Source: Escherichia coli
GTDB lineage: Bacteria > Pseudomonadota > Gammaproteobacteria > Enterobacterales > Enterobacteriaceae
Length of the DNA: 64,000 nucleotides
Assembly (NCBI RefSeq): GCF_003334815.1
Contig: NZ_QOWO01000001.1
Strand: one strand, 5' to 3'
Made by a program: the position numbers and the translations under genes. Positions 5,454 to 5,530 of the stretch are shown in pieces (position 1 is the first letter of the stretch; each line of letters starts with the position of its first letter). The notes beneath the pieces are model-generated. The model saw nothing but the letters and a program-made list of their open reading frames with translations. It was not told where the DNA came from and made no database searches.

Positions 5454-5530
5454 AATAGCTCACTTTGTTAACAACTTTAACTACTCTTTAATGCAGTATT
5501 AAAGATTAATCGGTAACAAAGTGAGCTGTT
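5454..5530 (+). promoter_or_regulatory. Perfect 14-bp inverted repeat (5457-5470 / 5514-5527) with a nested 7-bp hairpin (5487-5505), ending 4 nt before the yhbW ATG
   Basis: Read directly: AGCTCACTTTGTTA ... TAACAAAGTGAGCT; inner CTTTAAT-gcagt-ATTAAAG. Function unknown. Confidence 0.5.

Follow-up and report, generated by a model that had tools for sequence, protein, structure and literature searches.

The window (the whole stretch of 64,000 nucleotides of E. coli DNA that was analyzed) is of E. coli K-12 type at the locus described here, where an 80-nt spacer separates the genes ubiV and yhbW. ubiV is located directly upstream of yhbW and is co-directional with it, and no regulator gene adjoins the yhbW locus. 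The spacer harbors an outer inverted repeat and, between its arms, a second, smaller hairpin. The features of the locus are as follows:

4572–5450, + strand: ubiV coding sequence, with the stop codon TAA at 5448–5450 (RefSeq annotation of identical DNA, including NC_000913.3, and open reading frame list).
5454–5470, + strand: left (5') arm of the outer repeat, which holds CUCACUUU, complementary to the Shine-Dalgarno region.
5458–5472, + strand (forward): marbox-like 15-mer GCTCACTTTGTTAAC, a candidate MarA/SoxS/Rob (RamA) site with its center about 41 bp upstream of the predicted transcription start.
5486–5504, + strand: inner hairpin CTTTAAT-gcagt-ATTAAAG, overlapping the candidate −10 element.
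5494–5499, + strand: candidate −10 hexamer CAGTAT (consensus of the loci CAnTAT, with A2 and T6 invariant across genera).
5505–5508, + strand: predicted transcription start, 6–9 nt 3' of the hexamer (about 3,303,422–3,303,425 in NC_000913.3).
5514–5530, + strand: right (3') arm of the outer repeat, the proposed 5' UTR of yhbW.
5519–5525, + strand: Shine-Dalgarno sequence AAGUGAG, 5 nt 5' of the AUG, read from the sequence.
5531–6538, + strand: yhbW coding sequence, for a luciferase-like flavin monooxygenase of 335 amino acids (Pfam PF00296 on homologues).

The outer repeat returned by the repeat search has arms of 17 nt (5454–5470 and 5514–5530), which are 94% complementary and 43 nt apart. 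Its core is the perfect 14-mer AGCTCACTTTGTTA at 5457–5470, the reverse complement of which occupies 5514–5527; the earlier note had reported a perfect 14-bp repeat extendable to about 17 bp, and the sequence is as described there. The inner perfect 7-bp hairpin that the note had seen inside it is present as well, but one base away from the position given (5487–5505): its arms are CTTTAAT at 5486–5492 and ATTAAAG at 5498–5504, with the loop gcagt. By repeat search it is extendable to 11-nt arms (5482–5492 and 5498–5508; 91% complementary). The right arm does lie next to the yhbW start codon, but three nucleotides (GTT, 5528–5530) and not four separate its 14-nt core from the ATG at 5531. The view that this arm covers the ribosome-binding region was borne out, as AAGUGAG is the sole Shine-Dalgarno-like sequence and lies inside the right arm, which extends over the bases up to the AUG.

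The yhbW inverted repeat is real and non-random, and lies far above chance. No other perfect inverted repeat with arms of 14 nt or longer and a loop no longer than 60 nt occurs in the 64-kb window, and 100 local shuffles yielded a mean of 0.02 such repeats per window. When the + strand RNA of positions 5451–5533 (83 nt) was folded and compared with shuffled controls, as the earlier note had proposed, its folding energy was −28.1 kcal/mol (z = −5.5), and none of 200 shuffles equaled it. The − strand RNA of the same segment gave −27.2 kcal/mol (z = −5.7). The predicted fold consists of the outer stem of 17 bp, an internal loop, a 4-bp helix and an inner 9-bp helix, so that helices of about 30 bp in total are stacked with internal loops between them.

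The element was compared with known classes of intergenic structures. An intrinsic terminator was rejected, since the stem is AT-rich, the loop measures 43 nt and the tail GUUAUGACUGAU contains no U-run. A scan of positions 5000–6000 likewise found no terminator-like site between ubiV and yhbW, in agreement with the earlier judgment that the repeat is not a classic terminator. A dispersed repeat (REP/BIME, ERIC/IRU or MITE) was also rejected, because the element is single-copy: across 5425 E. coli genomes, its left half had a median of one match per genome, and no second copy of an arm was present in the 64-kb window at 0–1 mismatch. The full spacer matched two places per genome in the E. coli genome search; since the left half alone matches only one, this is best explained by the palindrome matching its own other strand. 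The repeat shares with REP/BIME and ERIC (IRU) elements the character of an intergenic palindrome between co-directional genes, and copies of REP and ERIC insert directly beside it in some strains, but it differs from them in being single-copy and AT-rich and in having no sequence similarity to them. A scan of the region with Rfam 15 returned only spurious sub-threshold matches to a microRNA hairpin model (27 bits, compared with a gathering score of 56), and the same scan of seven orthologous loci returned no match. No published description of the repeat was found in the searchable literature, in agreement with the earlier note, which had named no described function.

Within E. coli, the 80-nt spacer was found in 5424 of 5426 complete genomes, and none of the SNPs in six sampled variants falls within the arms. 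In isolate 602 (NZ_OW968111.1), the right half is the exact reverse complement of the left half, and the spacer is a perfect palindrome of about 77 bp; this is the only such genome among the 5424. Many E. coli strains and E. albertii carry an ERIC element directly 5' of the left arm. More generally, ERIC or REP elements of 110–130 nt are located between the ubiV stop codon and the left arm in many E. coli, in E. albertii, in Salmonella and in others, and these insertions always end directly 5' of the left arm.

Orthologous loci were collected from three sources: a YhbW scan of species-representative genomes, a lookup of named YhbW homologues, and a metagenome scan for the codon pattern of the ubiV C-terminus, from which E. 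coli was excluded. Pooling yielded 30 distinct spacer sequences. The arms GCTCACTTTGTTA(AC) and (TA)ACAAAGTGAGC hardly change across about 12 enterobacterial genera. They are kept in Escherichia, Salmonella, Citrobacter, Superficieibacter, the Enterobacter cloacae complex and two other 'Enterobacter' species, as well as in Cronobacter, Franconibacter, Atlantibacter, Entomohabitans, Pluralibacter, Buttiauxella and metagenome contigs. Among 24 distinct sequences, drawn from about 12 genera, the core of the left arm does not vary. GTGAG of the right arm is invariant in all loci, at a fixed distance of 5 nt (once 6 nt) to the ATG. The sequence between the arms diverges freely, with an extra module of about 70 nt in several genera, and the arm-to-arm spacing ranges from about 39 to about 113 bp. 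The block TTAATGCAnTATTAAA, which forms the inner hairpin, is kept in most genera, and Cronobacter carries a compensated change in it (TTCAT...ATGAA). Thus, the repeat is strongly conserved in close relatives, a point on which the earlier note had made its own reading depend.

Klebsiella sp. BIGb0407 has a degraded version of the repeat, and Erwinia, Acerihabitans and Yersinia lack it. In Erwinia, which has no left arm, a GC-rich hairpin followed by TTTCC is located after ubiV and falls below the terminator criteria; a correlation in which a terminator replaces the left arm was therefore not established. In Providencia, the gene upstream of yhbW is divergent and is not ubiV; there the left arm is absent, and ACAAAGTGAG of the right arm is kept together with the Shine-Dalgarno sequence. 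Part of the conservation of the right arm is accordingly independent of pairing.

In E. coli, yhbW is a member of the MarA/SoxS/Rob regulon, and in Klebsiella and Salmonella of the RamA regulon (PMC4310594, PMC6561319, PMC7653855). Purified RamA bound a K. pneumoniae yhbW promoter fragment and activated it 6.9-fold in vitro (PMC4310594). The expression of yhbW was lower in rob mutants (PMC7653855), and vanillin increased the YhbW protein 77-fold, with an induction of yhbW that was independent of soxS (PMC6561319). By homology, the primers of the RamA-bound fragment map from about 35 nt before the ubiV stop codon to about codons 20–26 of yhbW, with no exact match among the collected loci. From these primer positions it follows that the RamA site and the promoter lie in the spacer.

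Marbox-like sites were scored with a position weight matrix (PWM) derived from 87 ChIP-seq sites (Table 1 of PMC10268841). The best 15-mer of the spacer, GCTCACTTTGTTAAC in the left arm, scored 7.1 bits and ranked 143rd among the 127,972 15-mers of the window (top 0.11%), a score below the 25th percentile of real sites (9.1 bits). Of the marbox-like sites in the three loci scanned (E. coli, Salmonella and one enterobacterial contig), the left arm is the only one kept in all three, always in forward orientation and centered at −41 from the predicted start. The score of the left arm is weak in Buttiauxella (1.2 bits) and in Klebsiella sp. BIGb0407 (0.6 bits). A consensus scan of positions 5000–6000 called no consensus promoter, in the spacer or elsewhere, and neither the supplements of a 2025 E. 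coli MarA screen (for yhbW) nor those of PMC4782308 and PMC3415461 (for a transcription start at the yhbW locus) contained an entry.

The strongest evidence for a promoter is the fixed geometry of the left half of the spacer. Of the 28 loci in which the hexamer CAGTAT or its counterpart was located, 27 have it at exactly 36 nt from the G of GCTC in the left arm; the exception is Tenebrionibacter, which has no such hexamer at that position. In the same loci, the distance from the hexamer to the ATG varies from 31 to 105 nt, and the spacer insertions of other genera begin about 6–8 nt after the hexamer or further 3'. Since the 36-nt spacing is fixed and the insertions fall outside it, left arm and hexamer appear to form one indivisible unit with the sequence between them, which is the behavior of an activator site and a −10 element. 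According to the class II rule, the activator site is forward, is centered about 30–42 bp upstream of the start, overlaps the −35 position and has a −10 element at fixed spacing (PMC10268841). A start 7 nt after the hexamer would put the center of the candidate site at −41 in forward orientation, as this rule predicts. From this arrangement we infer both a start site and the identity of the activator in E. coli: the promoter of yhbW itself most probably lies inside the hairpin, with a predicted start near 5505. If so, the inner 'hairpin' is largely the −10 region of this promoter.

The candidate site resembles class II promoters such as micF, fumC, inaA and nfnB in that a forward marbox-like site is centered about 41 bp upstream of the predicted start, no −35 element is recognizable, the candidate −10 element is conserved and yhbW is a documented member of the regulon. 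It differs from them in carrying GCTC for GCAC and AAC for AAA, i.e., in being a moderate match, and in being conserved at positions that are uninformative for the activators. In addition, yhbW has no peak in the Salmonella MarA/SoxS/Rob/RamA ChIP-seq table (PMC10268841).

The left arm is invariant at positions 4–9 of the 15-mer, where the marbox PWM holds only 0.07–0.44 bits, and these positions (CACUUU) pair with AAAGUG of the Shine-Dalgarno region. Invariance at bases that say little about activator binding but pair with the Shine-Dalgarno region points to a further constraint on this arm. AAC at 5470–5472 is conserved, too: A5470 is paired in only 14 of 24 sequences, and 5471–5472 lie outside the stem. 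Their conservation fits the marbox. Among the 12 core pairs, one-sided changes that keep the pair are all G·U on the + strand (17 cells), with no A·C. The invariance at PWM-poor positions and the G·U bias are weaker signals that favor a constraint acting at the RNA level on the + strand. The covariation that the earlier note had suggested looking for did not reach significance: in an arms-only alignment of 24 distinct sequences, no signal exceeded shuffles, because the arms hardly vary. RNAalifold, applied to 13 spacers of the short type, kept only the outer stem and found no compensatory pair; the inner pairings are lineage-specific and occur in different registers.

The predicted accessibility of the ribosome-binding region depends on where the transcript begins. 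For E. coli, opening positions −13 to +3 was predicted to cost 3.4 kcal/mol on the mRNA from the candidate yhbW promoter and 16–18 kcal/mol on the read-through mRNA. Over the 30 loci, the predicted costs were 3–7 kcal/mol on the former and mostly 13–22 kcal/mol on the latter, with a mean predicted difference (read-through minus own transcript) of 11.8 kcal/mol. The predicted difference was 3.4 kcal/mol in Klebsiella sp. BIGb0407 and was lost in Tenebrionibacter (−0.5), where ubiV is not directly upstream.

These results suggest a mechanism in which the 77-bp quasi-palindrome would be a composite of the promoter and the 5' UTR of yhbW. The left arm would be a class II-type MarA/SoxS/Rob (RamA) site, 21 bp upstream of CAGTAT at 5494–5499; transcription from the candidate promoter would start near 5505–5508, 35 nt 3' of the left arm, and the right arm would be a short 5' UTR bearing the Shine-Dalgarno sequence. 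Because this promoter would lie inside the hairpin and the left arm would be absent from its transcript, the outer stem could not form on this mRNA, and the transcripts of the stress promoter would be translatable. In contrast, an mRNA reading through from ubiUV, which is under anaerobic FNR control, would carry both arms and would therefore fold back and hide the Shine-Dalgarno sequence, with a stem of about −25 kcal/mol burying it together with the bases up to the AUG. YhbW output would then follow the yhbW promoter and not the transcription of ubiUV. Here we infer both the read-through transcripts and the effect on translation.

That the element is a composite promoter and 5' UTR acting as a fold-back inhibitor of the translation of putative read-through transcripts is the reading we prefer, and we give it somewhat less than an even chance. 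A broader claim is more doubtful, and is put forward tentatively: that an activator site kept across much of the Enterobacteriaceae (about 12 genera) doubles as an anti-Shine-Dalgarno sequence, so that the oxygen-dependent monooxygenase YhbW would be translated only from the mRNA of the mar/sox/rob stress promoter and never from anaerobic ubiUV read-through mRNA. The earlier note is thereby supported in part. Among the functions it had suggested, translational control is the one that fared best; it had placed the repeat in its entirety in the yhbW mRNA or taken it for an operator, and had missed the promoter that most probably lies inside the hairpin.

Fold-back inhibition is reportedly known from the transposase genes of Tn10 and Tn5, i.e., from IS10 and IS50, through the work of Davis, Simons and Kleckner in 1985 and of the Reznikoff laboratory. 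In IS10 and IS50, external transcripts fold back and are not translated; transcription from the element's own promoter begins within the structure, and its product is translated. yhbW is alike in that sequence upstream of the start of its own transcript, here a predicted one, is complementary to the ribosome-binding region. It differs in being an ordinary chromosomal gene that follows an operon and not part of a mobile element, and in that its upstream arm seems to be an activator site as well; the mechanism at yhbW is, moreover, deduced from nucleotide sequence. In pyrC and pyrD of E. coli and Salmonella, sequestration of the Shine-Dalgarno sequence depends on the start site. The likeness lies in the 5' end of the transcript determining whether the Shine-Dalgarno hairpin forms. 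In pyrC, however, the start sites are a few bases apart within one promoter and respond to nucleotide pools, whereas for yhbW the promoters would be those of two operons, about 2 kb apart. What would be new at yhbW is that fold-back logic shields a chromosomal gene from the operon preceding it, and that an activator site serves as an anti-Shine-Dalgarno sequence.

Homogenization by template switching is a serious but less probable rival to the fold-back model. It holds that the palindrome is a by-product: the arms would be kept separately, one as activator site and the other as 5' UTR, and their complementarity, like that of the inner parts, would be produced and restored by template switching, with no role in RNA. 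In the non-coding DNA of MG1655, perfect inverted repeats measuring 13 nt or more show an enrichment of about 150-fold and are conserved, for which template switching has been blamed; the process can keep arms complementary without selection (PMC5941160). The perfect palindrome of about 77 bp in isolate 602 is the signature of one such event, the inner spacer is palindromic in a lineage-specific manner, with changes that perfect the palindrome, and the absence of significant covariation in the arm alignment fits this explanation too. The yhbW locus shares with quasi-palindrome hotspots (PMC7202029) and with the conserved perfect repeats of proteobacteria (PMC5941160) a long imperfect palindrome, one natural conversion and membership in the class of at least 13 nt. 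Its arms differ from those of the hotspots, however, in coinciding with two recognizable functional elements and in being conserved far above the spacer. Template switching leaves unexplained why the arms stay near-invariant in about 12 genera against a divergent loop and insertions of 70 nt, and why the left arm is invariant where there is hardly any information for the activator. Nor would a process at the DNA level be expected to be strand-biased, yet the deviating pairs are G·U and never A·C on the + strand. Finally, a correction of the kind seen in isolate 602 turns the −10 hexamer CAGTAT into CAGCAT, and it is found in one genome only.

Less probable than template switching is a role in RNA processing or stability, in which an RNase III cut, a 3' stabilizer or a pause site would set the 3' end of the ubiUV mRNA and thereby uncouple the two units. 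A strong stem-loop (−28 kcal/mol, z = −5.5) that starts 4 nt after the ubiV stop codon, stacked helices of about 30 bp with internal loops, and the lack of a terminator between the genes would suit such a role. So would REP and ERIC, both known as elements of mRNA ends, which have landed at this spot repeatedly in other strains and species. An RNase III substrate is expected to offer some two helical turns (about 20 bp or more) of almost uninterrupted double-stranded RNA and to be cleaved in an rnc-dependent manner. With 17 bp before a large internal loop, the outer stem of E. coli is short for this enzyme. Furthermore, where 110–130 nt of ERIC or REP separate the ubiV stop codon from the hairpin, no position at the 3' end of ubiV is conserved, and processing gives no reason why the 3' arm should be the Shine-Dalgarno region in every genus.

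A DNA operator appears slightly less probable again. It would consist of paired sites, either inverted marboxes or half-sites for a repressor, or would extrude as a cruciform and thereby modulate the promoter. Read as its reverse complement, the right arm reaches marbox scores of 8.2–10.0 bits in Atlantibacter, Enterobacter sp., Franconibacter and the L103 and L156 contigs, TTTAAT-N5-ATTAAA overlaps the −10 element as a repressor operator might, the change of Cronobacter in this motif is compensated, and vanillin induces yhbW without dependence on soxS. Across genera, however, the marbox score of this reverse complement varies between −13 and +10 bits, which is not the behavior of a conserved site; two inverted marboxes were therefore rejected as a conserved feature. 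The arm spacing of about 39 to about 113 bp keeps neither helical phasing nor distance, which argues against cooperative binding or looping. The G·U asymmetry of the core is not expected of a DNA site, and a regulator gene is not found nearby. Translational coupling, in which a ribosome finishing ubiV would melt the left arm and YhbW would be made in proportion to UbiV translation, is very improbable: in K-12 the left arm begins only 4 nt past the stop codon of ubiV and a ribosome terminating there would reach into the stem base, but judged from the known ribosome footprint it would open only about 5454–5460 and not the Shine-Dalgarno pairs 5459–5465/5519–5525, insertions of 110–130 nt of ERIC or REP between the stop codon and the left arm are tolerated with the repeat unchanged, and yhbW has its own regulated promoter (PMC4310594, PMC6561319).

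If the fold-back model is wrong, the locus is a conserved palindrome that overlaps a known regulon promoter, and of local interest only. The locus is also a natural quasi-palindrome with a documented template-switch conversion in the wild (isolate 602). If the model is true, it would provide a natural example for studies of operon architecture and for insulators in synthetic biology, and it would call for caution in equating yhbW mRNA, e.g., under anaerobiosis, with the level of the protein. Selection would act on one short DNA segment in two capacities, as a binding site for protein and as a partner in RNA pairing. The gene would be insulated from the transcription of its upstream neighbor without a terminator, and its protein would follow one promoter.

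Intergenic repeats were found directly 5' of the left arm of the inverted repeat between ubiV and yhbW. In E. albertii and some of the E. coli strains, this position was occupied by an ERIC/IRU insertion about 127 bp long. REP-like GC-rich palindromes lay at the same insertion point in Salmonella (locus L083) and in some of the Citrobacter/Enterobacter-like contigs (L125, L190). Intergenic repeats recurrently land at this spot, just 5' to the left arm.

ERIC/IRU insertion point: window 5456/5457; seen in the orthologous loci L102, L002 (E. coli isolate 602) and L007 (E. albertii).

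In isolate 602, the left half of the spacer was followed by its own exact reverse complement in place of the usual right half, so that the spacer formed a perfect palindrome about 77 bp long (agctcactttgttaacaactttaactactctttaatgc a gcattaaag...gtgagct). The variant was present in 1 of 5424 genomes, and it altered the candidate -10 hexamer from CAGTAT to CAGCAT. The arrangement looks like a natural template-switch event (quasi-palindrome correction).

Isolate 602 palindrome: L002:1501-1711, minus strand; equivalent to window 5451-5530.

The spacer of Erwinia endophytica (L010:2340-2385) was devoid of the left arm. A GC-rich hairpin, ACGCGCGCT-acacacc-AGCGCGCGT, followed by TTCCATT, was located 3' of its ubiV. 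This hairpin resembled a terminator in appearance and failed the terminator-scan criteria; it might be an alternative means to block read-through.

Where the left arm ends, TTGTTAACAA formed a perfect 10-bp palindrome with a central HpaI site (window 5465-5474), about -37 relative to the predicted yhbW transcription start. It was kept in most genera and may merely reflect the end of the marbox-like sequence or represent a separate dimer-binding site. When scored with the marbox matrix derived from 87 ChIP-seq sites (PMC10268841), the highest match of the entire window was ACACAATCTGTAAAA (13.6 bits), just upstream of the mtr start, with a second match of 11.2 bits nearby. Both may be chance matches.

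Marbox-matrix matches in the mtr-deaD spacer, upstream of mtr: 8022-8036 (minus strand) and 7988-8002 (plus strand).

A conserved, roughly 70-nt module was found in several genera, beginning at the predicted yhbW transcription start. It was carried by two Enterobacter sp., Cronobacter, Franconibacter, Atlantibacter, Entomohabitans and gut contigs, and was absent from E. coli.

Module loci, -10 hexamer to right arm: L003:2401-2480; L086:1400-1480; L087:1400-1480; L092:1400-1480; L103 about 12530-12610.
Mini-ORF at the module end: L003 about 2466-2480; also L086, L087 and L103.

The module starts with G or T followed by ACAGCTTTCYGGC, continues with a lineage-specific GC-rich hairpin and next has GCCAGGCTGGAAGAAGACCTTCAATCTGATGAC..GCTGTAAC. 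It would be a structured yhbW 5' leader; an Rfam search of the module returned no match, and RNAalifold gave a weak consensus only. The module is closed by a mini-ORF, ATG-ACN-(ATG/CTG/ACG)-CTG-TAA/TAG (M-T-x-L-stop), whose stop codon falls within the right arm. Its second codon takes all four ACN forms across genera, and in Atlantibacter and Entomohabitans the mini-ORF was reduced to (A/G)TG-CTG-stop. One possibility is that the mini-ORF, if translated, gives a leader peptide able to open the stem.
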